From the IMG/VR virus record IMGVR_UViG_3300017714_000002: a DNA stretch of 64,000 bases. The stretch is one strand, 5' to 3'. This DNA comes from an uncultured virus (IMG/VR IMGVR_UViG_3300017714_000002) (Duplodnaviria; Heunggongvirae; Uroviricota; Caudoviricetes). Made by a program: the position numbers and the translations under genes. Shown here one piece after another: positions 4,072 to 56,123 of this stretch. The notes below the pieces were generated by a model that worked only from the letters and a program-made list of their open reading frames with translations, was not told the origin of the DNA and did no database searches. Position 1 is the stretch's first letter, and each line of letters begins with the position of its first letter.

Positions 4072-4177
4072 CATTGTATGGGTTTTACGGCCTATGCAGA
4101 ATACTTACTTTATGTACGTATTCTTTTGCTTATAAAGATTATAGGCAAATCAAATATATTTGATTGGAGAAATCTCT

Positions 4178-7100
4178 ATGGCTTTTAGACAAATTAAGAG
4201 TCCGGCGTTGGCTAACCAAGCGGTTATCGATACCAAACTTGATGCGAGTTCAGTTTCAGGCCAAACTGCAACTACATCAGCAAACAACTTAGATGCTTTC
4301 CTTTTACACGACAATGCGACTTCAGCTCTGAAAAGTATTACAGCGGCAAATTTTATTGGTTCATTTACAACTGATGATATTACCGAAGGTTCAAGTAATG
4401 AATACTTTACAGATGCAAAAGCTCAATCAGCAGTAGCGGCAGACATTGCTACAGCAGTGGCGGCAGAAGCAGTGATAGCACGTGCGGCTGAACTTCAGAA
4501 CGCAAATGATATCGCGGCTGAAACGTCAAGAGCGACAGCGGCAGAGGGTGTAAATGCGACGGACATCGCAAGTGAAATAAGCAGAGCTACAGCGGCAGAA
4601 TCCGCTCTAGATACAGCTTATAAAGCGGCAGATGCTGGATTACAAACTCAAATAACAAACATTATATCAAACGTTGACCCTGCGGCATTAGACAGTTTAT
4701 CTGAAATTGTTGCAGAATTTCAATCTCAAGATAGTGCATTGACTGCGGCAATAACAGCTAACTCGACTTTAATTACAAACGAGACAGCTAGAGCTCAAAC
4801 TGCAGAACAAGCAAATGCAACTGCAATTAGTACAGAAGCAACAAGAGCACAAGGCGCTGAAGCAACTAACGCATCTGATATTTCAACAGAAGCGGCAACT
4901 GCTAGAGCGGCTGAAAATGCACTTGATGCTAGAGTAACTGCTAATGAAGGTGACATTACTACACTAACAACTGGATTGGCGGCGGAAATATCTGCTACAG
5001 ACGGTGAAGTTTCACAACTACAAACCGACTTAGCGGCAGAAGTTACACGTGCATCAGGAGCTGAATTAGCAAATGCACAAGACATTGCAAACGAAGCGAC
5101 TGCAAGAGCAAATGCAGATACAGCGGTAAGAACAGACTTTGCAACAGCAGATGCAACAACTTTAGCATCAGCACAAACATACGCAGATACAGCAGAAGCA
5201 GATGCAATCGCTACAGCGGCGGCAGATGCAACTACAAAAGCAGACGCGGCACAAGCGGCGGCTGAAGCACACGCAGATACAGTATCAGCGGCAGAGACAG
5301 CGGCTATCAATACAGCGGTAGCAGTAGTTGACGCTAAAGTTACTACAAATGCTTCAGATATTAGTGCGTTAGAAACAGTAGTTGGTGATGTAGCAAATAC
5401 ACCACTTGATACTACAGCAACATCAATTGGTGCGGCTATCAACGAACTTCACGGTGAGATTGATACTAACACTACAGATATTGCAACTAACACAGCTGAT
5501 ATCGCAACTAATACAGCTGACATTGCAACTGAAACAGCTAGAATTGATAACATTCTAACTAACACAGACCCAGCGGCACTTGACTCACTGACTGAAATCG
5601 TTACAGCTTTCCAAGCTGGTGATTCAGCGGCAACAGCGGCAATTAACGCAAACGCAACTGCTATTTCGCAGAATGCTTCAGACATCACAACTGGTGACGC
5701 GGCATTACAAACAAATATCAATGCGGAGTCTACAAGAGCACAAGCGGCTGAAGGTGTTAATGCGGCGGCAATAGCGGCAGAAACAACAAACAGACAAGCA
5801 GGAGATGCATCAACTTTAGCATCAGCACAAGCATATGCTGATACAGCTGAAGCAGACGCGATTTCAACTGCGGCGGCTGATGCAACTACAAAAGCAGATG
5901 CGGCAGAAGCAAATGCAATCGCAGACAGTGATGCGGCAGACGTAGCACTAATGGGTGATGCAACACTAGACGGTACAGCAGGTAATACTGTAACAGATAG
6001 AATTGCAACAGCTAAAGCGGGTGCAGAAGCAACAGCAGAAGCTTATACTGACCAAGAAGTTCTAACTGAAAAGACTAGAGCACTTGCGGCAGAAGCGGCA
6101 AACACACTAGCTATTACAGCTAACACTGGTGATATAGCAACTAACGCGACAGACATTGCAACTAACGCAAGTGACATTGCAACAGAAACAGCAGACAGAA
6201 TTGCGGGTGACGCAACTCTAACTACTGCTATTTCAAATGAAGCGTCAACAGCTAGAGCGGCAGAACTTGCTAACGCACAAGCGGTAACAGCAGAAGAAAC
6301 AAGAGCACTTGCGGCAGAAGCGGCAAACGCAACAGCAATAGCAAACGAGGTATCTCGTTCAACTACTGCTGATTCAACGCACACAGCTAACATTGCAACT
6401 AACACTAACGATATTGCTACTAACTTAACAAGTATCAATAACGAAGTAGCTAGAGCAACAACAGCTGAAGCGACACTTCAAAGTAACATCGACACGGAAA
6501 CAGCTAGAATTGATTCAATCCTAACTAATACGGATCCGGCGGCGTTAGATTCACTAACTGAAATTGTTTCAGCATTCCAAAGTGCTGATAGTACAATCAA
6601 TGGTGCAATCACAAGTCTAAGTAATACTGCTTCAACAGACAGAGCGTTAATTCGTACTGAATTTGCGGCGGCTGACACAGCATTAGACACACGTCTAACA
6701 GCTGAAGAAGGCAAAGTATCTACTTTAGAAACACAAGCAGGTAGTGCGGCACTACAGACAACTGCACAAACGTTATCAGAAGCGATCAACGAACTGAACT
6801 CAGGTACAGCGGCTGATTTAACTTCTGTTAATAACGCAATTGATGCAGTAGAAACTGGTGCAGGTTTACAAAGTGACGGTTCTTACTCAGCACACTCAGG
6901 AACACACGCAATTGATTCAGCTTCATCATTACATGATGCAGACTCTAAATTAGATGCGGCAATCCTAGCTGAAAAAACAAGAGCTGAAGCGGCAGAAGCA
7001 ACACTAACTACAAATGTTTCAGCAAATGCAACAGCAATCTCTGGTAATACAGCAGACATTGCAACTAATGCAACAGCAATCGCAACTAATGCATCTGACA

Positions 7101-8908
7101 TCTCTACTAACGCGGCAGACATAGCGTCTGAAGCAAGTACAGCTAGAGCGGCAGAATCAGCGAATGCAAACGCAATTACAGCAGAAGCAACTACAGCAAG
7201 AGCGGCTGAACAAGCAAATGCAACAGCTATCGCAAATGAGTCAACAAGAGCTCAAGCGGCAGAAGCGGCAAATGCAACTGATATCGCAGACAACTTAACT
7301 GAAATTACAGCTACACAAGCTGGCGCAGGTTTAGGTGTTGATGGTACATATTCAGCAAATGCAACAGCAGACTACATCTCAACTGCATCATCATTGAAAG
7401 ATGCTGATAACAAGTTAGATGCGGCTGTTAAAGCAGAAGAAACTAGAGCTACAGCGGCAGAAGGTGTGTTAACTACAAACCTAGCAACTGAAGTAACTAG
7501 AGCTCAAACTGCAGAACAAGCTAATGCGGCAGATATTGCTACAGAAACAGCTAGAGCAACAGCGGCGGAAGCGGCTAATGCAACGTCTATTTCAACAGTA
7601 GCAACAGACTTGGCAACAGAAGTGACACGTACAGACGCTTTAGTAGTCACAGTTAACGATATTATCAGTAACACGGATCCAGCGGCGCTAGATTCATTAA
7701 CTGAAATCGTTACTGCTTTCCAAAATGCAGACAGCACACTAACAGGTACAGTAGCGGCAAACGCAACTGCCATTACTAACCTAAGTACAGCTTTAACAAG
7801 CGAAGTAAATGACAACGACACAGACCACGCGGCGGCGACAACTGACAGGGCGGCTATCCGTACTGAGTTTGCGGCGGCTGATGCGGCTCAAGACACAGTA
7901 ATCGCAACTAAACTAGCACTTGCTGGTGGAACAATGAGTGGCGATATTGCTATGGGCGGTCAACTAGTAACAGGTTTAGGAACAGCGGCCAATCCAGGTG
8001 ACGCAGTATCTAAAGCAGTACTAGATGCGGCAATTTCAGCACAAGACATCTCTACTAATACTACAGATGACTTAGCTGAAGGTTCAAACCTATACTACAC
8101 TGATGCCAGAAGCAGAGCGGCAATTAGTGTTAATGACGTTGCAGGCGCAGGCTTAGTAAGCTACGATAACAGCACAGGTGTTATCTCGGTTGACACTAAC
8201 GAATCAGTCCTAGACTTAACAGATGTATCTGATACAGATTACACTAACAAAGACGGATACGTATTAGCAGTTAACTCAAATGAAGACGGTATGGAACTGA
8301 AAAACCCGTTAAATGTTTTCTCAACACAAGAGAGAATGACAATTAATGGTGATGGATCTGCAACGCAGTATTCATTAACTTTCACTACAACACAAGACCA
8401 AGCAATGGTTTTTGTTGGTGGTGTTATTCAGGATCCATCAACTCACTACACTATCGATAGTGCGGCGAAAACTATCACGTTTAACTCAGCAGTACCAGTT
8501 GGTACACAAATTGTTGTGTTATCACCAGGTGCAGGACTTAACCCAGTACTACTTGCTAACTCAGTATCATTCGACAAACTAGCGGCTGATATTAAAGCAT
8601 ACGTACAAAAAGGTGAAGTATCAGCTTCCGGTTCAACTACAGTTGATTCATTCAACGGTGCGTTGTATCGTTCAGCGAAATACATCATGCAGGTTGATGA
8701 CGGCGCAGGTAACTATGAGACACGTGAAGCTTTAGTAGTACATGATGGTAGTACTGCATACATTACAGAGTACGCAATGGTTTATACTGGTGCAGACTTA
8801 ATTGGTGATGCAAGTGTTACTATGAACGGAAACCAAGTTGAATTAACTTACACTCCGACAAGTGGTACAGCTACAGTTAAAGTGATCGCTACTTACATTG
8901 ATGTGTAA
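4178..8908 (+). CDS. Long Ala/Thr-rich coiled-coil tail fibre-like protein
   Basis: The ATG at 4178 has SD GGAGA (4166-4170). Heptad-like repeats (ETARAxAAE, NATDIA), four DPAALDSL(S/T)EIV motifs, TDD(I/L)xEGSxNxY(F/Y)T motifs, and a C-terminal 'YRSAKY..QV...VVHDG..AYITEY' virion domain. Confidence 0.75.
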   Translation: MAFRQIKSPALANQAVIDTKLDASSVSGQTATTSANNLDAFLLHDNATSALKSITAANFIGSFTTDDITEGSSNEYFTDAKAQSAVAADIATAVAAEAVIARAAELQNANDIAAETSRATAAEGVNATDIASEISRATAAESALDTAYKAADAGLQTQITNIISNVDPAALDSLSEIVAEFQSQDSALTAAITANSTLITNETARAQTAEQANATAISTEATRAQGAEATNASDISTEAATARAAENALDARVTANEGDITTLTTGLAAEISATDGEVSQLQTDLAAEVTRASGAELANAQDIANEATARANADTAVRTDFATADATTLASAQTYADTAEADAIATAAADATTKADAAQAAAEAHADTVSAAETAAINTAVAVVDAKVTTNASDISALETVVGDVANTPLDTTATSIGAAINELHGEIDTNTTDIATNTADIATNTADIATETARIDNILTNTDPAALDSLTEIVTAFQAGDSAATAAINANATAISQNASDITTGDAALQTNINAESTRAQAAEGVNAAAIAAETTNRQAGDASTLASAQAYADTAEADAISTAAADATTKADAAEANAIADSDAADVALMGDATLDGTAGNTVTDRIATAKAGAEATAEAYTDQEVLTEKTRALAAEAANTLAITANTGDIATNATDIATNASDIATETADRIAGDATLTTAISNEASTARAAELANAQAVTAEETRALAAEAANATAIANEVSRSTTADSTHTANIATNTNDIATNLTSINNEVARATTAEATLQSNIDTETARIDSILTNTDPAALDSLTEIVSAFQSADSTINGAITSLSNTASTDRALIRTEFAAADTALDTRLTAEEGKVSTLETQAGSAALQTTAQTLSEAINELNSGTAADLTSVNNAIDAVETGAGLQSDGSYSAHSGTHAIDSASSLHDADSKLDAAILAEKTRAEAAEATLTTNVSANATAISGNTADIATNATAIATNASDISTNAADIASEASTARAAESANANAITAEATTARAAEQANATAIANESTRAQAAEAANATDIADNLTEITATQAGAGLGVDGTYSANATADYISTASSLKDADNKLDAAVKAEETRATAAEGVLTTNLATEVTRAQTAEQANAADIATETARATAAEAANATSISTVATDLATEVTRTDALVVTVNDIISNTDPAALDSLTEIVTAFQNADSTLTGTVAANATAITNLSTALTSEVNDNDTDHAAATTDRAAIRTEFAAADAAQDTVIATKLALAGGTMSGDIAMGGQLVTGLGTAANPGDAVSKAVLDAAISAQDISTNTTDDLAEGSNLYYTDARSRAAISVNDVAGAGLVSYDNSTGVISVDTNESVLDLTDVSDTDYTNKDGYVLAVNSNEDGMELKNPLNVFSTQERMTINGDGSATQYSLTFTTTQDQAMVFVGGVIQDPSTHYTIDSAAKTITFNSAVPVGTQIVVLSPGAGLNPVLLANSVSFDKLAADIKAYVQKGEVSASGSTTVDSFNGALYRSAKYIMQVDDGAGNYETREALVVHDGSTAYITEYAMVYTGADLIGDASVTMNGNQVELTYTPTSGTATVKVIATYIDV

Positions 8909-25005: not shown

Positions 25006-26208
25006 ATGAAGATTTGCATCATAGGAGGCGGAACTACAGGATGGTGGGCCGCTGGTTACATAGAGCATAACTTTCCAGATTATGATATAACACTTATTGA
25101 AAGTAGTGATATACCAATAGTTGGCGTAGGTGAAAGTACACTTCCTATGATCAAAACTTTTTTTGATAGTTTTGGTATGCAAGAAGAAACATGGATGTCA
25201 AAATGTGATGCTATACACAAACATGGTAATATAAAACAAGGTTGGGATAAACCAGATGGTGATGAATTTAAATTTACATTTTGGTTTAATGATGATAATG
25301 TATTTGAAGATTGGTATAAGAAGTACAAAGCAGGTGAAGTTACAAAACATCAAATCAACGAAGAACTGTATGATGCCAAAGGTTGGAGAGCAGTAGCATA
25401 TCATTTACACGCAGAAGAAGCAGGGCGTATAGTAAAAGAAAATTGTAAAAATGTAAAACATATTGTACAAACACTTGATAAAAGACCAGAGGGGTATGAC
25501 TTATATATTGATTGTACAGGTTTCCGTAGACAATTTGTCAACGATAAAACTGAAGTAGAAATACATGAAAAGCATTTAGTTAATAGTGCTTGGGTTTGTC
25601 CATTTGAGCTAGATGAACATATTCCATATACTAGAAGTATAGCACGTGATTATGGTTGGCAATTTAAAATTGGATTAACTTCTCGTATTGGTACTGGTTA
25701 TGTTTATAGTGATAAGCATATTAGTAATGAAGATGCACTAGAAGAGTTTAAAGATTATACAAAAGACTTAACACCATTTATGGGTAAACAACCACGTAAT
25801 ATTAAATGGAATCCTAATTGGTTAAAGAATCCATGGGCAGGCAATACGGTTGCTATAGGGCTTAGTCAAGGCTTTATTGACCCATTAGAATCAAATGCAT
25901 TGTTTATGATACAATATAGTATTACGACGCTTGTAGAGTGCTTAAAACGCGAATATGACGCCAAAACTTACAATAGAATGATCAACAGAGTTTGGAAAGA
26001 AAACAGTGATTACATATTACATCACTATGCATTATCTAACAGAGACGATACAAGTTTCTGGAAAGAATATACAGATATGGATATGAGTGAAACTGTATGG
26101 GAACACTATAAAAAGACTGGAAACAAATATACTAATCTTTATCCCGATGCTATATGGGCAACACTAGCTCTTTACTACGATAATTTCAAGCATTTTTCCG
26201 GAAAATAA
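25006..26208 (+). CDS. Flavin-dependent tryptophan halogenase-like protein
   Basis: IIGGGTTGW (FAD), PIVGVGEST, AIHKHG (catalytic-Lys region), IDCTGF, GWQFKIGL (WxWxIP-like), RIGTGYVYS, and IGLSQGFIDPLES. Confidence 0.88.
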   Translation: MKICIIGGGTTGWWAAGYIEHNFPDYDITLIESSDIPIVGVGESTLPMIKTFFDSFGMQEETWMSKCDAIHKHGNIKQGWDKPDGDEFKFTFWFNDDNVFEDWYKKYKAGEVTKHQINEELYDAKGWRAVAYHLHAEEAGRIVKENCKNVKHIVQTLDKRPEGYDLYIDCTGFRRQFVNDKTEVEIHEKHLVNSAWVCPFELDEHIPYTRSIARDYGWQFKIGLTSRIGTGYVYSDKHISNEDALEEFKDYTKDLTPFMGKQPRNIKWNPNWLKNPWAGNTVAIGLSQGFIDPLESNALFMIQYSITTLVECLKREYDAKTYNRMINRVWKENSDYILHHYALSNRDDTSFWKEYTDMDMSETVWEHYKKTGNKYTNLYPDAIWATLALYYDNFKHFSGK

Positions 26209-47239: not shown

Positions 47240-48103
47240 ATGGCACAATTAAAAAGACAAAGAAAAAACAAAAAAGGCGAGACAATCGTTGAAGTTCTTC
47301 CTACTAAAGTAAAAGACAATCCTAACGAGACTGATGAGCAAATCATAGAACGTATGAGAGAAAGGTTCTCTATACTTGATGATATGACACAAGCTTCAAT
47401 AGATGGTGTTGTTAGAGGTATGGTAGTAACAGGCCCTCCAGGCGTAGGTAAATCATTTGGTGTTGAACAAGTTCTAGAAAAGAATTCATTGTTTGATGTA
47501 CTAGGTGGTAATAAAGCAAAATTTGAAACTGTAAAGGGTGCTTCTAGTGCAATAGGTTTGTACAAAGTTCTTTACAATAATGCAGACAAATCAAACGTAT
47601 TAGTACTTGATGACTGTGATACAGTACTATATGATGAAACTAGTTTGAACTTGTTGAAAGCGGCTTTGGATTCTAGTAAGAAAAGAAAGCTATGTTGGAA
47701 TACAGATTCAGCTCTATTAAGACGTGAAGGTATACCTGATACATTTGAATTTAATGGTTCAGTTATATTCATCACTAACCTTAAGTTTGATAATGTAAGA
47801 GGTAAAATTAAAGATCACCTTGATGCTATAATGTCAAGATGTCATTACTTAGATCTTACTATGGATACAACTAGGGAGAAAGTTCTTAGATGTAAGCAAA
47901 TAGTTAAAGACGGTATGCTTAACGAGTATATGTTCAGCGAAGCTGAAAAAGATGATGTAATGAATTTCATGATCGATAACAAAGATAAGATGAGAGAAAT
48001 AAGTTTGAGAATGGTTACCAAACTTGCAGATCTTAAAAAGTCTATGGGTGACAAGTGGAAAAGAACCGCTGAAGTTACTTGTATGAGGCGAACTGTTTCT
48101 TAA
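47240..48103 (+). CDS. P-loop (AAA+-like) ATPase
   Basis: GPPGVGKS Walker A, LVLDDCD Walker B, IFITN sensor-1, and AIMSR arginine-finger-like motif. Confidence 0.8.
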   Translation: MAQLKRQRKNKKGETIVEVLPTKVKDNPNETDEQIIERMRERFSILDDMTQASIDGVVRGMVVTGPPGVGKSFGVEQVLEKNSLFDVLGGNKAKFETVKGASSAIGLYKVLYNNADKSNVLVLDDCDTVLYDETSLNLLKAALDSSKKRKLCWNTDSALLRREGIPDTFEFNGSVIFITNLKFDNVRGKIKDHLDAIMSRCHYLDLTMDTTREKVLRCKQIVKDGMLNEYMFSEAEKDDVMNFMIDNKDKMREISLRMVTKLADLKKSMGDKWKRTAEVTCMRRTVS

Positions 48104-48208: not shown

Positions 48209-49660
48209 ATGAAATGTAAGATAACTCTGAAAGATGAAGTGAATTGCAAAGTAGAAGGCTTAGATATAGACACACGTAGAAAGTGTGAAAAAGAATTAAA
48301 GTTTTTTCTTCCTTATGCATATCACGTACCAGCTTTTAAGCTAGGTAGATGGGATGGATGTACGTCTTATTTCACTATAGGTGGAATTACGTATACTAAC
48401 CTATTAGATAAAGTATTGCCTATTATTATGGGACAGGGTTATGAAATAGATCTAAATGACTTACGTTTTAAATATGACTTTCAATTTGATCCTGTAGATG
48501 AAAACACATTTGAAAACAAAGTGTGGCCAGAAGGTCATGTTGTTGCAGGCGAGCCTGTAATTTTAAGAGACTATCAAGTAGAAATTATTAACAAGTATCT
48601 AGCAACACCACATTGTCTACAGGAGATAGCTACAGGTGCCGGTAAGACGTTAATAACCGCGGCATTAAGCAACAAAGTAGAAAAGTATGGAAGGAGCATT
48701 GTTATTGTACCTAATAAAGATTTAGTTACACAAACATATGCTGATTATGCAAATTTAGGATTAGATGTTGGCGTTTATTATGGCGACAAAAAAGAATTAG
48801 GACACACCCATACTATTTGTACTTGGCAGAGTTTAAACAGTATAAGAAAAAGATTTAAAGAAGGAGAATCAGATTTAAGTTTACAAGATTTTGCAGAAGA
48901 TGTAGTATGTGTAATAGTTGACGAAGTACATCAAGCAAAAGCAGAAGTATTAAAAGAATTACTAACAAAAGATTTTTCAAACATTCCACTAAGATGGGGT
49001 TTAACAGGCACTATACCAAAAGCTGATCATGAGAAGGTTAGTTTACAGGCTTGTTTAGGAGAAGTTACACACAAACTGGCGGCAAGTGAACTACAAGAAA
49101 AAGAAGTTCTAAGTCAATGTCATGTTAATGTAGTGCAATTAAAAGAAGTATCAGAATACAACAATTATCAAAGCGAACTAACTTACCTAACTACTAATGC
49201 TTCACGTATGAAGTATATAAGTGGTTTAATTAAAAAAGTATCTGCTTCTGGTAATACTCTTGTATTAGTAGATAGAATCAAAGCAGGTCAGCTAATATGC
49301 GATAATATAGCTGAAGCTAACTTTGTTAGTGGTGAGATGAAAACTACTACACGTAAAGATCATTATGACGACATTAATGAGGGAACTAATCAAATTGTTG
49401 TAGCAACATATGGTGTTGCGGCAGTAGGTATTAATATTCCACGTATATTTAATCTTGTTTTAATAGAACCAGGAAAGAGCTTTGTTAGAGTAATACAAAG
49501 TATTGGACGTGGTATTAGAAAAGCAGAAGACAAAGATAATGTGCAGATATGGGATATTACAAGTTCAGCTAAATTTAGTAAAAGACATCTTACAGAACGT
49601 AAGAAATTTTACAAAGAAGCAAATTATCCATTTACTATTGAAAAAGTAAATTGGCTTTAA
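48209..49660 (+). CDS. uvsW: SF2 DNA helicase, UvsW-like
   Basis: LRDYQ, ATGAGKT, VDEVH, GLTGT, GINIP and QSIGRGIR. Confidence 0.92.
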   Translation: MKCKITLKDEVNCKVEGLDIDTRRKCEKELKFFLPYAYHVPAFKLGRWDGCTSYFTIGGITYTNLLDKVLPIIMGQGYEIDLNDLRFKYDFQFDPVDENTFENKVWPEGHVVAGEPVILRDYQVEIINKYLATPHCLQEIATGAGKTLITAALSNKVEKYGRSIVIVPNKDLVTQTYADYANLGLDVGVYYGDKKELGHTHTICTWQSLNSIRKRFKEGESDLSLQDFAEDVVCVIVDEVHQAKAEVLKELLTKDFSNIPLRWGLTGTIPKADHEKVSLQACLGEVTHKLAASELQEKEVLSQCHVNVVQLKEVSEYNNYQSELTYLTTNASRMKYISGLIKKVSASGNTLVLVDRIKAGQLICDNIAEANFVSGEMKTTTRKDHYDDINEGTNQIVVATYGVAAVGINIPRIFNLVLIEPGKSFVRVIQSIGRGIRKAEDKDNVQIWDITSSAKFSKRHLTERKKFYKEANYPFTIEKVNWL

Positions 49661-50360: not shown

Positions 50361-50808
50361 GCTAGATATTAAGAGTGAAATGAGAGCAATTGATACCAAA
50401 GATAGAAAATGGTACAATAGTCTTACAGATGAAGAAAAAGGTAAATTAAGTCTTTGGCCGTTAATGAGATATACAAGTAGTGCAGGTGATAAAAACTTTA
50501 CAGAGCATTACTTAGAATGGACTAATGAAGTAGTCAATGTTCATTTTAATAAATTACGACAACATCCTGAATTACAGTTTAAACTATTACAATTAGTAGG
50601 ACTTGGCAAACCTACATTTCATCCTTGGATAGCACCGGGTAAACGAGGTAAGAAAAATAAGATACAAGAGTGGGTAGTTAAAAACTACAGTCAATTAAAT
50701 GATGACGAAGTTGATATTTTTATAAGCAATAAAACTAAAGAAGACTTTATTGAGTTATTTGAGGAATACGGAATGACTAAAAAAGAAATAAAAGAGTTAT
50801 TAAAATGA
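50350..50808 (+). CDS. Hypothetical protein, possibly clamp-loader small subunit (gp62-like)
   Basis: W.LMRYTS...N......HPELQF.LL...G...FHPWI pattern and size are reminiscent of gp62; weak call. Confidence 0.4.
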   Translation: MMSKLDIKSEMRAIDTKDRKWYNSLTDEEKGKLSLWPLMRYTSSAGDKNFTEHYLEWTNEVVNVHFNKLRQHPELQFKLLQLVGLGKPTFHPWIAPGKRGKKNKIQEWVVKNYSQLNDDEVDIFISNKTKEDFIELFEEYGMTKKEIKELLK

Positions 50809-51131
50809 AATACAATATAATGGATATTGGTGGAGAAGTTATTAAAGATAACGAAACTTACATATTAAAAGATAACAAGTTATTAAACAACCTAGTATTA
50901 AGCAGTACAGAATTACACCCATATAAGTCAACACGTGGGCATAACCATAGTGGACAAGAAGAAGTATATTACTTTGTTAAAGGAGCTGGTACTATGTGGC
51001 TAGATGATAAAGAGATGTTTGTACAAGCTGGTGATGTTGTGTTAATTGAAGATGGAGTGCATCATAGAGTCAAATGTGGACCACAAGGTTTATATTTTGT
51101 TTGTGTATTTGATGGCAAAAGGAATCATTAA
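50805..51131 (+). CDS. Cupin-domain protein
   Basis: GHNHSGQEEVYYFVKGAG...GDVVLIEDGVHHRV cupin motifs 1 and 2. Confidence 0.85.
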   Translation: MKYNIMDIGGEVIKDNETYILKDNKLLNNLVLSSTELHPYKSTRGHNHSGQEEVYYFVKGAGTMWLDDKEMFVQAGDVVLIEDGVHHRVKCGPQGLYFVCVFDGKRNH

Positions 51132-51802
51132 TGTTTAAGTGTAACTATTGTGGAAAATCATTTGCAAAAGAAAGCACACTATCAGTACATATGTGTGAAC
51201 AAAAACGTAGGTTCATGCAAAAAGATGAAAAGCACGTACAATTAGGATTTAGGTCTTATCAATTATTTTATAGAATAGGTACTAATTCTAAAAATGAAAA
51301 GACATATGATGAATTTGCAACAAGTCCATATTATACTGCATTTGTAAAATTTGGTTATTATTGTAGAGATATTGGAATAGATGATGTTCCAGCATTTACA
51401 GAATGGCTAGTTAGGAATTCAGTAAGGCTAGATCATTGGAATAGAGATTCACAATTTAAGAAGTGGATGAAAGAACGTTTAAAAACAGAAAGTGTAGATA
51501 GAGGTGTAGAACGTACTATATTATTTTTACAAGAATGGGCAAAAGAAAACGATACAACCTATAACAAATATTTTACAAAAATATCTACAAATTTAGCCGT
51601 ATTTCATATTTGTAGTGGAAAGATATCTCCTTGGGTATTGTTTCATAGTAGCGAAGCACAAGTTATGATTGATAATTTTAGTACAGAACAATTAAAAATG
51701 GTTAATGAATTTTTAGAAATAGACTATTGGCAAAGAGCCATGAGTGTAAACCCACAAGATAGTAGATGGGTTACGGAGATATTGCAAAAAGCAGAATTAT
51801 GA
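51131..51802 (+). CDS. Hypothetical protein with N-terminal zinc finger
   Basis: FKCNYCGKSF..ESTL.VHMC. Confidence 0.65.
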   Translation: MFKCNYCGKSFAKESTLSVHMCEQKRRFMQKDEKHVQLGFRSYQLFYRIGTNSKNEKTYDEFATSPYYTAFVKFGYYCRDIGIDDVPAFTEWLVRNSVRLDHWNRDSQFKKWMKERLKTESVDRGVERTILFLQEWAKENDTTYNKYFTKISTNLAVFHICSGKISPWVLFHSSEAQVMIDNFSTEQLKMVNEFLEIDYWQRAMSVNPQDSRWVTEILQKAEL

Positions 51803-51891
51803 TAATACCAATACTTTGTATATTGTGTTGTTTTATAATTCCTGTATACTTGTTATACAAAATGAATAAAGAGGATCCAAATGATAGTTAA
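51799..51891 (+). CDS. Putative 30-aa membrane peptide MIIPILCILCCFIIPVYLLYKMNKEDPNDS
   Basis: ATGA overlap with the upstream stop; fills the gap and overlaps the start of the next gene; one TM helix. Confidence 0.45.
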   Translation: MIIPILCILCCFIIPVYLLYKMNKEDPNDS

Positions 51892-52465
51892 TACAGATAT
51901 TGATATTGATGTAGCAGATAGAAACAGACTTTTAAAATTAATTAAAGGTACTACTGCTATGATATTAAAAGAAAACAAACAAACAAAACATAATACAGGC
52001 GTATACTTTCATGATATGCCTAGTAATCCATTTACAGGACTATCTAGTGTAGACTACAAAGAAGCAGAAGATATGGGTTACTTTAAAATTGATGTACTTA
52101 ATGTTGGCTTGTATAAAGATATAAAATCAAAAGAACATCTTAATCAACTGTTAGCAATGGAGCCAATGTGGGAGTTGTTAGAGCATAAAGAGGTAGTAGA
52201 AAAATGCTTTCATATACATAAACATTTTGATATAGTTAACACTTTAAAACCTAAAAGTGTTGAACAATTAGCGGCAGTACTAGCAGTAATAAGACCTGCT
52301 AAACGTCATTTGTTAAAACAAAATTGGAATAATATAAATGAAAATGTTTGGAAAAAGCCATCAGGCGATGAATACTTTTTTAAAAAAGCTCATGCTCATG
52401 CATATGCATTAGCTATTGTCTTACAATTAAATATGATGGCTACGGGCCTTTCTTTACAAGATTAA
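51881..52465 (+). CDS. dnaE: Miniature DNA polymerase III alpha (family C) catalytic-core protein
   Basis: TDIDIDVADR, KHNTGVY, GYFKIDVLNV, PKSVEQLAAVLAVIRP and YFFKKAHAHAYA occur in the same order as DnaE PDFDVDF, KHAGGV, GLVKFDFLGL, P..FED..A..AL.RPG and YGFNKSHS.AYA. Confidence 0.8.
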   Translation: MIVNTDIDIDVADRNRLLKLIKGTTAMILKENKQTKHNTGVYFHDMPSNPFTGLSSVDYKEAEDMGYFKIDVLNVGLYKDIKSKEHLNQLLAMEPMWELLEHKEVVEKCFHIHKHFDIVNTLKPKSVEQLAAVLAVIRPAKRHLLKQNWNNINENVWKKPSGDEYFFKKAHAHAYALAIVLQLNMMATGLSLQD

Positions 52466-52811
52466 TACTTCTACGTTTTATACGTTTAGTAATACTATTA
52501 CTTAATCTAACTTCGGGCCCAGCAATTACTTCCATTTGTTTAACATTAAAACTTTGTACACAATGGGCAAAGTTCCATCTATTAAGTAATGCAATGTTTA
52601 TTGGAAGTTTTCTATTAGTTTCCCACCACCATTCTTCACCTAATTCTAAAAATTTCATTTTTTCATACTCTTCGCTAAGACGATCGTAGATGTACATACT
52701 AGCCACGTGACTATCTATATTCTGCATTATACCCAGGTATTCGTTGTTGGCATACTCAATGACGGTTAAGAATGGATATTGCTCTAAGAGTTTCTGATGT
52801 TTGGTTTGCAT
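52440..52811 (-). CDS. Hypothetical protein
   Basis: 123-aa ORF with YPFLT, FLELGEEWWWETNRKLPINI; convergent overlap with the dnaE-like gene; CTAAATA box upstream on the minus strand. Confidence 0.65.
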   Translation of the reverse strand: MQTKHQKLLEQYPFLTVIEYANNEYLGIMQNIDSHVASMYIYDRLSEEYEKMKFLELGEEWWWETNRKLPINIALLNRWNFAHCVQSFNVKQMEVIAGPEVRLSNSITKRIKRRSINLVKKGP

Positions 52812-52872
52812 TCTATAGGTATTTAGCCTTTTGAAATCTCCACTTTGGATAAATACTACATAGGAGCAATAT

Positions 52873-53706
52873 ATGTCAAATTACGGAACTACATACCAAG
52901 TTAATCAAGAAGGCGATCTTTATACATTAGAAGATCACGGAACACCAGCAGGACAAGCAAAATACGCAGGTGCAAAAGGTACCGCAGTTAATAGTCCTAT
53001 GAATTATAGATTCTTAAAACTGTTTCGTGGATTTGATAATGAGTTTTTCTTTTTTATTAAAAATCAAGATAGAAAACCAGTAATGTTACAAGGTACAACA
53101 GTATATTGTTCTTTTATTGATAGAGACGATAGGTCAACTACAATAAGTAAGAAAGCAATTATCACAGATTATATACAAGGTGGTATTAAAGTAATAATAA
53201 CAGTAGGTGAAAGTGGAAGATTTTCACAAGGACATTATGATTTAGTGTTTAGTTATACTACGGATACAGGACTAACAGTTCCATTATTTTGTGATTTAAA
53301 TATGAGACCTAACTTTACTGTAGATGTAAGTGAAGAAGGTGACGCATTACCACTTACTACACAAGCAGATGAGAACTTTCAACAACAAACAGTAAACAAT
53401 CAAACATTCTATTACAGTAGTTCATTAAAAGCAACAGGTTATTATGATAAACCAAATGGATTAGTAACAATAGGAGTATATGGTACAGGTTATACTGGTA
53501 ATTTTTATATGCAAGGTACTTTAAGTGATAACCCTACAGAACCAGATTGGTTTGATATCACACTTGGTACAAATACTCAAACATATTTTCCATATTTAAA
53601 CCATACAGGTATAGATCCTTGGACTTTTCGAACAAACGTTAAATATCTAAGAGCAAAATTTACTCAATCAGCAGGAACACTTGACAAAGTCGTAATTAGA
53701 GTGTAA
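52873..53706 (+). CDS. Late virion-like protein
   Basis: Late box at 52849 and SD AGGAG; beta-rich T/G/Y composition. Confidence 0.6.
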   Translation: MSNYGTTYQVNQEGDLYTLEDHGTPAGQAKYAGAKGTAVNSPMNYRFLKLFRGFDNEFFFFIKNQDRKPVMLQGTTVYCSFIDRDDRSTTISKKAIITDYIQGGIKVIITVGESGRFSQGHYDLVFSYTTDTGLTVPLFCDLNMRPNFTVDVSEEGDALPLTTQADENFQQQTVNNQTFYYSSSLKATGYYDKPNGLVTIGVYGTGYTGNFYMQGTLSDNPTEPDWFDITLGTNTQTYFPYLNHTGIDPWTFRTNVKYLRAKFTQSAGTLDKVVIRV

Positions 53707-53709
53707 TAT
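53681..53709 (+). promoter_or_regulatory. sigma70-type promoter, leaderless configuration
   Basis: TTGACA-N17-TAATAT-N6-ATG(53716); lies inside the 3' end of the upstream gene. Confidence 0.7.
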
Positions 53710-53715
53710 ACACTT

Positions 53716-54726
53716 ATGACTTTAATGAATGACTACGTTCGAACTCTGATACCTACTAACTGGCGAAGTAACCCCAATGGGTGGGTTTCTGGTAATTGTC
53801 CTATGTGTGTAAGAAACGGTGAAAGCAGGCCAGATACAAAAGGCAGAGGTGGTTTTTATTTTGAAGAAGATCATTTTCAATATAATTGTTTTAATTGCAA
53901 TTATAAAACAGGGTATACACAACATAATAGAATAACAAACAAATTAAAAAAATTATTAACTATATTAGGTGCAGATGAAAACGATATACATCGTATTCAA
54001 CTAGAGTTATTACGTGAGCAAGATGTTGCTACGTTATTAATTAAAAAAGAAAAACCAAAGCAATTAAATATTGGTTGGGATAAAAAAGATTTACCAGAGG
54101 GTGCAAAGCCGTTTATGGAATTTAAAGATCCTGATCAAAATTGGATTGATGCAGTATCATATTTAACTAGTAGAGGATTTGATGTAACTGACTCTAGACT
54201 TATGTATAGCCCTAGTAAACAATTTGGTAGAATGAACAGAAGATTTATTATACCATTTACGTATAAGAATGATATAGTAGGCTATACTGCTAGATGGATA
54301 GGAACTCCACCTAAGGAAGTAGCAAAATATTATAATCAACAACCTAAAGCAGATTTTGTATATGGGCTTGATAGGCAAACAAGAAATAGAGAAATGGTTA
54401 TAGTTACAGAAGGTCAACTTGATGCTATAGTAACAGATGGTTGTGCTACAGGTAGAAATAATATAAACGAAGAACAGGCTGAGATATTAAAAAGCCTTGA
54501 TAAAGAAATTATAGTATTACCAGATTTAGATGAACCTGGTAAAATGATGTGTAAGTCTGCTATAAAACATGGTTTCAGTGTATCCTTTCCAGAATGGAAA
54601 GATTGTAAAGATGCAAGTGATGCCTTGACAAAATACGGAAGATTGTATACAATAAGAAGTATTATAAATAGTAGGCACAAAAATCCAACAAAAATTGAAC
54701 TATTAATGAGGAAGGTTTGCAAATGA
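53716..54726 (+). CDS. gp61: DnaG-type primase (Zn finger + TOPRIM)
   Basis: CPMC...CFNC, RRFIIPF...VGYTAR...KYYN, VTEGQLD, PDLD and KDASD; directly upstream of the helicase. Confidence 0.85.
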   Translation: MTLMNDYVRTLIPTNWRSNPNGWVSGNCPMCVRNGESRPDTKGRGGFYFEEDHFQYNCFNCNYKTGYTQHNRITNKLKKLLTILGADENDIHRIQLELLREQDVATLLIKKEKPKQLNIGWDKKDLPEGAKPFMEFKDPDQNWIDAVSYLTSRGFDVTDSRLMYSPSKQFGRMNRRFIIPFTYKNDIVGYTARWIGTPPKEVAKYYNQQPKADFVYGLDRQTRNREMVIVTEGQLDAIVTDGCATGRNNINEEQAEILKSLDKEIIVLPDLDEPGKMMCKSAIKHGFSVSFPEWKDCKDASDALTKYGRLYTIRSIINSRHKNPTKIELLMRKVCK

Positions 54727-56123
54727 ACGAAGGTAAAGAATATTCAGTAGATCTACAAAGATTGTTTGTAGAATTCTTGTCACAAGATCAAGATTTATTT
54801 GTTAGAGTAAATGCAATATTAAATCCTGAATTCTTTGACAGAGAGCTACGTAAAACCGTCGAATTTGTACAAAGTCATGCAACAGAATATCAAGCATTGC
54901 CTACACTAGATCAAATTAAAGCAATCTCAAATTTAGAACTACAGCCATTAAAAGATGTTGATGATAGACATAAGAAATGGTTTATAGATGAGTTTGAAAT
55001 ATTTTGTAGACATAAAGCATTAGAAAGTGCAATTTTAAAAAGTGCTGATCTTTTAGAAAAGGGCGAATATGGTCCTGTAGAAAGAATGGTAAAAGAAGCA
55101 GTACAATTAGGTTTAGCAAAACATATGGGTACAGATTATTGGAAAAGTCCAGCTGAACGTATTGAACGTATAAGAAATCAAAGAGGTGGTATTAGCACAG
55201 GTTGGGCTGAAGTAGATAAAAAACTATATGGTGGATTTAACAGAGGAGAATTAAATATATTTGCCGCACCGTCAGGTGGTGGTAAAAGTTTGTTCTTACA
55301 GAATTTGGCATTGAACTGGGCACTAGCAGGGCAAAATGTAATTTATATTAGTTTAGAATTAAGTGAAGAACTATGTAGTATGCGATTAGATAGTATGCTA
55401 ACAGGAATGAATACCAGAGAAGTATTTAAAAATGCAGATGATGTAGATTTAAAAGTTCGTATGCAAGGTAAAGATGCGGGTAAATTGCAAATTGTACAAT
55501 TACCTAATGGTATTACAGTTAACACTATTACAAGTTTTATTAAAGAGTATGAAGTAAAAAACAATATAAAAATTGATGGAGTATGTGTTGATTACTTAGA
55601 CTTAATGATGCCAGCACAGAGCAAAGTAAGTCCAAGTGATCTGTTTATTAAAGACAAGTTTGTATCAGAAGAATTGCGTAATTTTGCAGTAGAAAATGAT
55701 ATATTACTAGCGACAGCATCTCAGTTAAACAGAAGTGCAGTAGAAGAAGTAGAATTTGATCACTCTCATATTGCTGGTGGTTTAAGTAAAATTCAGACAG
55801 CAGATAACGTTATTGGTATTTTTAGTAGCCAAGCAATGCGTGAAAGAGGCAGATATCAAATACAGTTTATGAAGACTAGAAGTAGTAGTGGAGTGGGGCA
55901 AAAAGTAGACCTAGCATTTGACGTATCTGGGCTTCGTATTAGCGATTTAGCAGAAGAAGAGCAAGGATCTGTAGCTAATCAACCTAGTGCTATGTTTGAA
56001 AAAATTAAAGCACAGAACAAAGTAACCCATCAAGAGAAGAGTATAGCTGAAAATAGTGTAGTAGAGAACACATTATCTGGACACGACAAACTTCGAAGTA
56101 TGCTGAAAAGAAGTAATAATTAG
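54723..56123 (+). CDS. gp41: Replicative DnaB-like helicase
   Basis: ATG at 54723 (ATGA overlap). ISTGW..VD..LYGG, APSGGGKS, SLELSE, VDYLDLM, TASQLNR and KTR. Confidence 0.93.
   Translation: MNEGKEYSVDLQRLFVEFLSQDQDLFVRVNAILNPEFFDRELRKTVEFVQSHATEYQALPTLDQIKAISNLELQPLKDVDDRHKKWFIDEFEIFCRHKALESAILKSADLLEKGEYGPVERMVKEAVQLGLAKHMGTDYWKSPAERIERIRNQRGGISTGWAEVDKKLYGGFNRGELNIFAAPSGGGKSLFLQNLALNWALAGQNVIYISLELSEELCSMRLDSMLTGMNTREVFKNADDVDLKVRMQGKDAGKLQIVQLPNGITVNTITSFIKEYEVKNNIKIDGVCVDYLDLMMPAQSKVSPSDLFIKDKFVSEELRNFAVENDILLATASQLNRSAVEEVEFDHSHIAGGLSKIQTADNVIGIFSSQAMRERGRYQIQFMKTRSSSGVGQKVDLAFDVSGLRISDLAEEEQGSVANQPSAMFEKIKAQNKVTHQEKSIAENSVVENTLSGHDKLRSMLKRSNN

Follow-up and report, generated by a model that had tools for sequence, protein, structure and literature searches.

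A 194-residue DnaE-like protein of an uncultured marine jumbo phage is probably the C-terminal unit of a split minimal DNA polymerase III alpha

Is a protein of 194 residues that carries the catalytic motifs of a family C replicase a DNA polymerase in its own right, or one part of an enzyme whose remainder is encoded elsewhere? The question is raised by an open reading frame (ORF) in a 64,000-nt stretch of an uncultured virus (IMG/VR record IMGVR_UViG_3300017714_000002), here called the window, whose own numbering is used for all positions. An initial annotation of the ORF had read it as a complete 'bare palm' polymerase. We find instead that it encodes, with a probability of about 0.85, the C-terminal unit (C-unit) of a two-gene split minimal DNA polymerase III (Pol III) alpha of group 2.2 jumbo phages, and the identity of the system as a split minimal Pol III alpha is well supported. 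The window is AT-rich (G+C 34.8%) and its genes are of the jumbo-myophage type, tail sheath, tail tube and large terminase among them. It is contained in a linear 124-kb record (G001) that shares 100% of its sampled words; since this record is estimated to be 34% complete, a genome length of about 350 kb is probable for the phage. The gene and the signal in front of it are located as follows.

51871..51875, + strand: Shine–Dalgarno-like GAGGA, 5 nt before the ATG, read directly
51881..52465, + strand: probable C-unit of a split minimal Pol III alpha (phrog_11778 match, conservation in alignment A1, structural model)

The ORF has the Shine–Dalgarno sequence, start (ATG) and stop (TAA) ascribed to it at the outset, and the five motifs follow one another in the expected order between residues 6 and 176: DIDID (6–10), KHNTGV (36–41), YFKIDVL (67–73), PKSVEQLAAVLAVIRP (124–139) and FKKAHAHAYA (167–176). 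In the PHROGs database it falls into phrog_11778, 'DNA polymerase' (E = 3.1e-69; profile length 197), and it has the features of that family, a length of about 190–200 residues and a start at the DxD strand. Among 8000 scored candidates from a collection of 5.8 billion proteins, 7896 match it at E ≤ 1e-3, and the 120 matches listed are 149–206 residues long, mostly 194. An exhaustive search of representatives at 50% identity returned 415 clusters at E ≤ 1e-3, 270 at 1e-10 and 78 at 1e-30. The ratio of non-synonymous to synonymous substitution rates (dN/dS; pairwise Nei–Gojobori) is 0.076 to the nearest distinct allele (dS 0.49) and 0.07–0.24 over 40 unsaturated allele comparisons, five more being saturated; the sample consists of 45 distinct alleles left after collapsing the duplicates of 80 IMG/VR loci, with Phosso and one mis-extended locus dropped. 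This ratio was one of the checks suggested initially. The AT-rich composition, the wide family matches, the number of clusters and the low dN/dS together argue against a chance ORF, and the C-unit is a real, conserved gene.

With tblastn the C-unit matches 96 cultured phage records, all of them jumbo phages and each below 60% identity, with at least 80% of the query covered in 95 of the 96. They include Phosso (the best match, 49.7% identity), the PA5oct group, Atu_ph07, XacN1 and the 121Q/PBECO4 group, and several of the copies are already annotated as 'DnaE-like DNA polymerase III alpha' or 'DNA polymerase'. A single-protein search of prokaryote genome contigs, which reaches close relatives only, found none.

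Homology with the bacterial replicase becomes visible at the level of the family. The single protein matches no Pfam family at E ≤ 1 and, with phmmer, no PDB entry. We aligned the window's protein with 87 full-length representatives and four closer proteins (alignment A1; 92 sequences, 31–90% identity), leaving out 63 of 150 listed representatives, all of them fragments except for one fused form. Pol III alpha chains are the top nine of the 11 PDB matches of the resulting profile (E = 2.3e-5 to 3.5e-4). Profile positions 55–140 correspond to Escherichia coli DnaE 539–641, a segment with K553, D555 and the FRP motif, and positions 155–178 to DnaE 743–767, with FNKSHSAAYAL. In the alignment to 2hnh, K69 and D71 of the C-unit fall on E. 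coli K553 and D555, R138-P139 on FRP (638–640) and FKKAH on FNKSH (756–760). The proposed mapping of the DnaE motifs is supported by this profile, as well as by the alignment of a fused homologue described below. An AlphaFold2 model of the C-unit built on A1 is confident (predicted local distance difference test, pLDDT, 95.2; predicted template-modelling score 0.87) and its fold superposes on solved structures of Pol III alpha and PolC; in a Foldseek search 15 Pol III alpha-type chains rank first, with weak E-values.

As noted initially, all three catalytic aspartates of family C are kept: D6, D8 and D71 (E. coli D401, D403 and D555) are invariant in the 92 sequences, as are K69 and P139. Conservation is at least 90% for D10, H37, G40, K141 and, among the family C fingers motifs alongside P139, for R138, K168 and H171, with others. 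The protein spans E. coli DnaE residues of about 397–788, so that some 390 residues are compressed into 194. It is made up of the second half of the palm and much reduced fingers, to which R138-P139 and K168/K169/H171 belong, with no room for a thumb. PHP domain, thumb, clamp-binding motif and OB domain are absent, as had been claimed, judged by that span and by Pfam at E ≤ 1. A compacted rather than decayed palm and fingers derived from DnaE is thus borne out. The whole palm is not: because the ORF starts five residues before DxD, the first half of the Pol-beta-like palm is missing from it, and with that half the GRGS triphosphate-binding motif, which the family has as an invariant GVGRGSS (E. 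coli G359–S364 region).

The missing half is encoded elsewhere in the genomes of relatives. When the complete Phosso genome was searched with PF07733, the match was a 177-aa ORF (97210–97743), 224 kb from the C-unit gene, that ends in GVGRGSSVASYVLFLIGIHRVNSITYELDFDEFLN and is annotated 'DnaE-like DNA polymerase III alpha'. A PF07733-matching protein of 168 aa is likewise encoded in G003, a 205-kb IMG/VR record, about 117 kb from a C-unit with 74% identity to that of the window. Such N-terminal units (N-units) occur in G003, Phosso, PA5oct, 121Q, Atu_ph07 and others; they are 158–184 aa long, end in GVGRGSSVASY...KYELDIKEFLK and lie 30–224 kb from the C-unit gene (about 30 kb in 121Q and Vibrio phage 2.275.O, 44 kb in PA5oct, 183 kb in Atu_ph07). 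In a set of 20, GVGRGSSV and KY-LDIKEF are invariant and every protein stops directly after EFLK or EFIR. The N-unit profile aligns with E. coli DnaE 256–392 (E = 0.012), which places the EFLK end at L392. The break point is therefore constant, with N-units ending at EFLK and C-units beginning about five residues before DxD.

The two units also occur together. The G003 N-unit has tblastn matches in 119 phage records, and by host genus the tallies of N- and C-units are equal for Escherichia (34/34), Pseudomonas (11/11), Salmonella (8/8), Erwinia (8/8), Xanthomonas (4/4) and Yersinia (4/4). Matches under Bacillus (13) and Clostridium (5) are limited to the N-unit and may come from phages with a whole DnaE. 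Among the records listed, 33 of 40 with a C-unit recur among the 60 with an N-unit.

A few proteins join both units in one chain. P0210 (375 aa, a representative) and P0272 and P0273 (78–81% identical to it) are metagenomic proteins of 375–376 aa in which a 10-residue linker connects the units. PF07733 covers residues 97–207 of P0210 (E = 4.8e-16), and a phmmer match of its residues 106–205 to E. coli DnaE 319–417 (E = 3.5e-6) runs across the split point, placing GVGRGSS on GPGRGSG (359–365) and DFDID on D401–D405. PF02811 is absent from the fused forms. In the AlphaFold2 model of P0210 (pLDDT 84.6) residues 81–375 mostly exceed 85, and the first 80 residues are poorly modelled; this segment gives poor models and no matches in the fused forms and in the N-units alike. 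Since only three fused clusters were found against hundreds that are split, splitting is the rule. These proteins are rare, naturally occurring one-chain forms of the mini Pol III alpha and represent either a secondary fusion or the ancestral state. One further long form, P0271 (350 aa), the sole one returned, was rejected as a fusion: its N-terminal 160 residues have neither the GS motif nor a Pfam match, and we read it as an over-extended gene call.

The break shows no trace of protein splicing. Nothing follows EFLK and only about five residues precede DxD, which leaves no room for split-intein segments at either end, and in the fused forms a 10-residue linker suffices. That the missing DnaE parts might lie in a split or intein gene had been named initially as the contrary outcome; a split gene is what we find for the N-terminal half of the palm, without an intein.

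The C-unit gene lies in a replication module, and the window has the T4-like replication and recombination genes of group 2.2 jumbo phages.

42666: gp32-like single-stranded DNA-binding protein
43736: UvsX
45111: UvsY
48209..49660, + strand: UvsW-like DNA helicase, at the head of the conserved module (the 121Q homologue is annotated UvsW-like)
51131..51802, + strand: Zn-finger protein, 223 aa, phrog_11058, conserved upstream neighbour
52440..52811, − strand: convergent 123-aa ORF, phrog_11637, sharing 26 nt with the 3' end of the polymerase gene
53716..54726, + strand: DnaG-type primase
54717..56123, + strand: DnaB-like replicative helicase

The module reads helicase, orf49670, orf50350, Zn-finger ORF, C-unit, convergent ORF, (structural protein), primase, DnaB and orf56164. 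As the synteny check proposed at the outset showed, the order is the same in Phosso, PA5oct and 121Q, phages with C-units only 40–50% identical to that of the window; the Zn-finger and convergent ORFs are thus conserved neighbours. The replication context described initially stands in that a UvsW-like helicase precedes the gene and primase and DnaB follow it; the clamp-loader subunit it also included is only weakly supported. The AAA+ protein at 47240–48103 (+ strand) has its best match in phrog_1250 (function unknown, E = 2.4e-83), and it resembles clamp-loader (phrog_168, E = 3.3e-4) and DnaC-like proteins only weakly, at E of about 1e-4.

Several further features of the module were recorded. 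A single C2H2 finger lies at the N terminus of the Zn-finger protein (PF00096, E = 2.5e-5, just under the cut-off); the C-terminal domain of this protein is uncharacterised. The convergent ORF has no Pfam match and has homologues in the convergent position in Phosso (51% identity), PA5oct (40%) and 121Q (32%). For both proteins the ESM Atlas returned clusters of their own family at most, or nothing. The gap between the Zn-finger and polymerase genes is filled by an ORF of 41 codons for a hydrophobic peptide (51766–51891, + strand), which overlaps the start of the polymerase gene by 11 nt. As tblastn finds it in place (50–72% identity) in relatives with C-units 74–93% identical, it is possibly a genuine gene for a small membrane protein. 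A 108-aa cupin-domain protein (50805–51131, + strand; PF07883, E = 1.4e-12) also sits within the module and has no tblastn match in the module regions of Phosso, PA5oct or 121Q.

A scan of 50800–53800 for promoters and terminators gave 12 promoter-like sites, with 16.9 expected, and no terminators. Contigs from RNA libraries of two runs from different studies cover parts of the C-unit gene (X1, 52007–52313; X7, 52122–52309) with no differences from it. DNA carry-over is possible, so we do not count this coverage as proof of transcription, with which it is compatible, and we read nothing into the parts without coverage. Inside the C-unit gene, alternative frames contain no ORF of 25 aa or more. 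Elsewhere in the window, a 400-aa ORF among the structural genes (25006–26208, + strand) matches phrog_2928, 'tryptophan halogenase' (E = 7.8e-87), and a 1582-aa ORF next to tail-fibre-like genes (4160–8908, + strand) has no PHROG family at E ≤ 1e-5.

The most likely mechanism that we infer is a non-covalent, two-subunit mini family C polymerase with an accessory role beside a T4-type replicase. N-unit and C-unit would associate without a covalent bond and rebuild one Pol-beta-like active site, in which the N-unit would hold the triphosphate of the incoming deoxynucleoside triphosphate and the C-unit the two metals and the primer-template. The rebuilt enzyme would be a thumbless, clampless, short-patch DNA polymerase of low processivity, working beside the phage's family B replicase. 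Given that the C-unit gene belongs to a conserved helicase–primase module, the enzyme would most likely extend primers or fill gaps, either at the fork or during recombination-dependent replication. In Firmicutes, DnaE extends primers and hands over to PolC. A more specific version by analogy, which we regard as doubtful, would make the two-gene enzyme a primosome-coupled primer extender that takes over the RNA primers of DnaG and hands short DNA to the family B polymerase, and the Zn-finger and convergent proteins could then be extra subunits.

Some results weigh against the two-gene reading. Foldseek alone gives the C-unit no match at E ≤ 1e-3 (best 1.5e-3). The alignment behind the P0210 model (A6) misplaces the last nine or so residues of the N-unit rows, and that model may owe something to what AlphaFold has learnt from DnaE structures. 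A role beside the family B polymerase is conjecture, and the literature searched contains no biochemical or genetic test (activity, heterodimer, expression timing) for any member of the family; the PA5oct omics paper and the PaBG paper make no statement on this protein. Most directly, two N-unit queries and PF07733 found no N-unit in G001 (124 kb) or in G002 (221 kb), a record whose C-unit is 93% identical to that of the window. The initial statement that the window holds no other piece of DnaE is correct in this respect for the entire 124-kb record. Both records are genome fragments, and the gene order of G003 would account for the absence, since it would put the N-unit past the ends of both. 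Along one strand of G003 the C-unit (150,057–150,638) is followed after about 95 kb by the family B polymerase (54,408–51,718) and 18 kb further by the N-unit (33,381–32,878); the distance between the latter two is 16–20 kb in G003, G008, G009 and G010. In G002 the C-unit (115,204) and the family B polymerase (209,566–212,259) have a spacing like that of G003 and the record ends at 221,643, and G001 extends just 44 kb on that side of the C-unit. Gene order thus predicts that the N-unit of this phage lies beyond the record ends. Among IMG/VR contigs with a family B polymerase at least 95% identical to that of G002, none reaches the 16–20 kb needed. The search for a family B polymerase suggested initially gave a divided answer: none was found in the 124-kb record, and ORFs of 897–1013 aa are present in G002, G003 and Phosso.

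How do other explanations fare? The ORF could be a stand-alone nucleotidyltransferase, a minimal polymerase acting by itself or with the Zn-finger protein. Its own expression signals, the intact aspartates, the confident and compact model of the monomer, the lack of an N-unit within the 124 kb around it and the Zn-finger gene conserved upstream in Phosso, PA5oct and 121Q all fit this account. We consider it very improbable: the ORF encodes half a palm, and the Zn-finger protein, proposed as a partner, is a conserved neighbour that nothing links to the enzyme. It is improbable, to a slightly lesser degree, that the two-unit protein is a Pol-beta-fold nucleotidyltransferase of non-replicative chemistry, such as untemplated tailing, priming or the synthesis of a nucleotide signal. 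A catalytically dead relic, or a structural or regulatory subunit that retains a DnaE-like shape, would be in keeping with the extreme reduction and with the full family B replicase of relatives. Such a protein is scarcely credible given that D6, D8, K69 and D71 never vary in the 92 sequences, diverse as these are, that GVGRGSS is invariant in 20 N-units, that dN/dS is low in every unsaturated comparison and that members of the family number in the thousands among metagenomic sequences.

No relative of the bacterial replicase core smaller than the split minimal Pol III alpha is known, and the split lies inside the palm. Compared with bacterial DnaE and PolC (2hnh, 3e0d, 4iqj, 5lew, 3f2b), about 360 residues in two chains take the place of about 1160 in one, without PHP domain, thumb, clamp-binding motif, OB domain or tau-binding tail; about half of the fingers is removed, and in the model a short hairpin appears to replace the thumb. 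Cyanobacteria also make a family C catalytic subunit from two distant genes, whose products carry the pieces of a split intein and are spliced into one full-length DnaE. The phage protein differs in that its break lies inside the palm, intein pieces are absent and the product is minimal. Separately encoded polymerase pieces are shared with the chimalliviruses, whose polymerase is reported (bioRxiv 2026, PMC13648687) to be of family B with an RRM-like palm and to serve as the main replicase of nucleus-forming group 1 phages.

The family itself was described in 2021 and this gene is a member of it. For group 2.2 jumbo phages, Iyer et al. (2021, Viruses 13:63, PMC7824862) report the split minimal Pol III alpha as an accompaniment to a family B polymerase, propose that it helps in the synthesis of one strand or has a role in repair, and suggest that the minimal form is ancestral. 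If it is, a proto-family C polymerase would have a living model in the mini Pol III alpha. The protein is accordingly not new, and the gene is better annotated as 'split minimal Pol III alpha, C-terminal unit' than as a novel stand-alone polymerase. The family, with at least 7896 sequences, and with 415 clusters at 50% identity, is widespread and abundant in jumbo phages, marine ones included; in a marine jumbo-phage cluster, PGC_A, PF07733 is present in 51.9%, as stated by Weinheimer and Aylward (2022, PMC9123017). Relative to the system of Iyer et al., nothing differs in kind, the present case being an uncultured marine lineage in which the N-unit is unseen in a fragment record. Shared with that system are membership of phrog_11778, 40–50% identity to the Phosso, PA5oct, Atu_ph07 and 121Q copies, a C-terminal 'Mg2+- and DNA-template-binding' unit, a T4-like replication set and a family B polymerase in close relatives.
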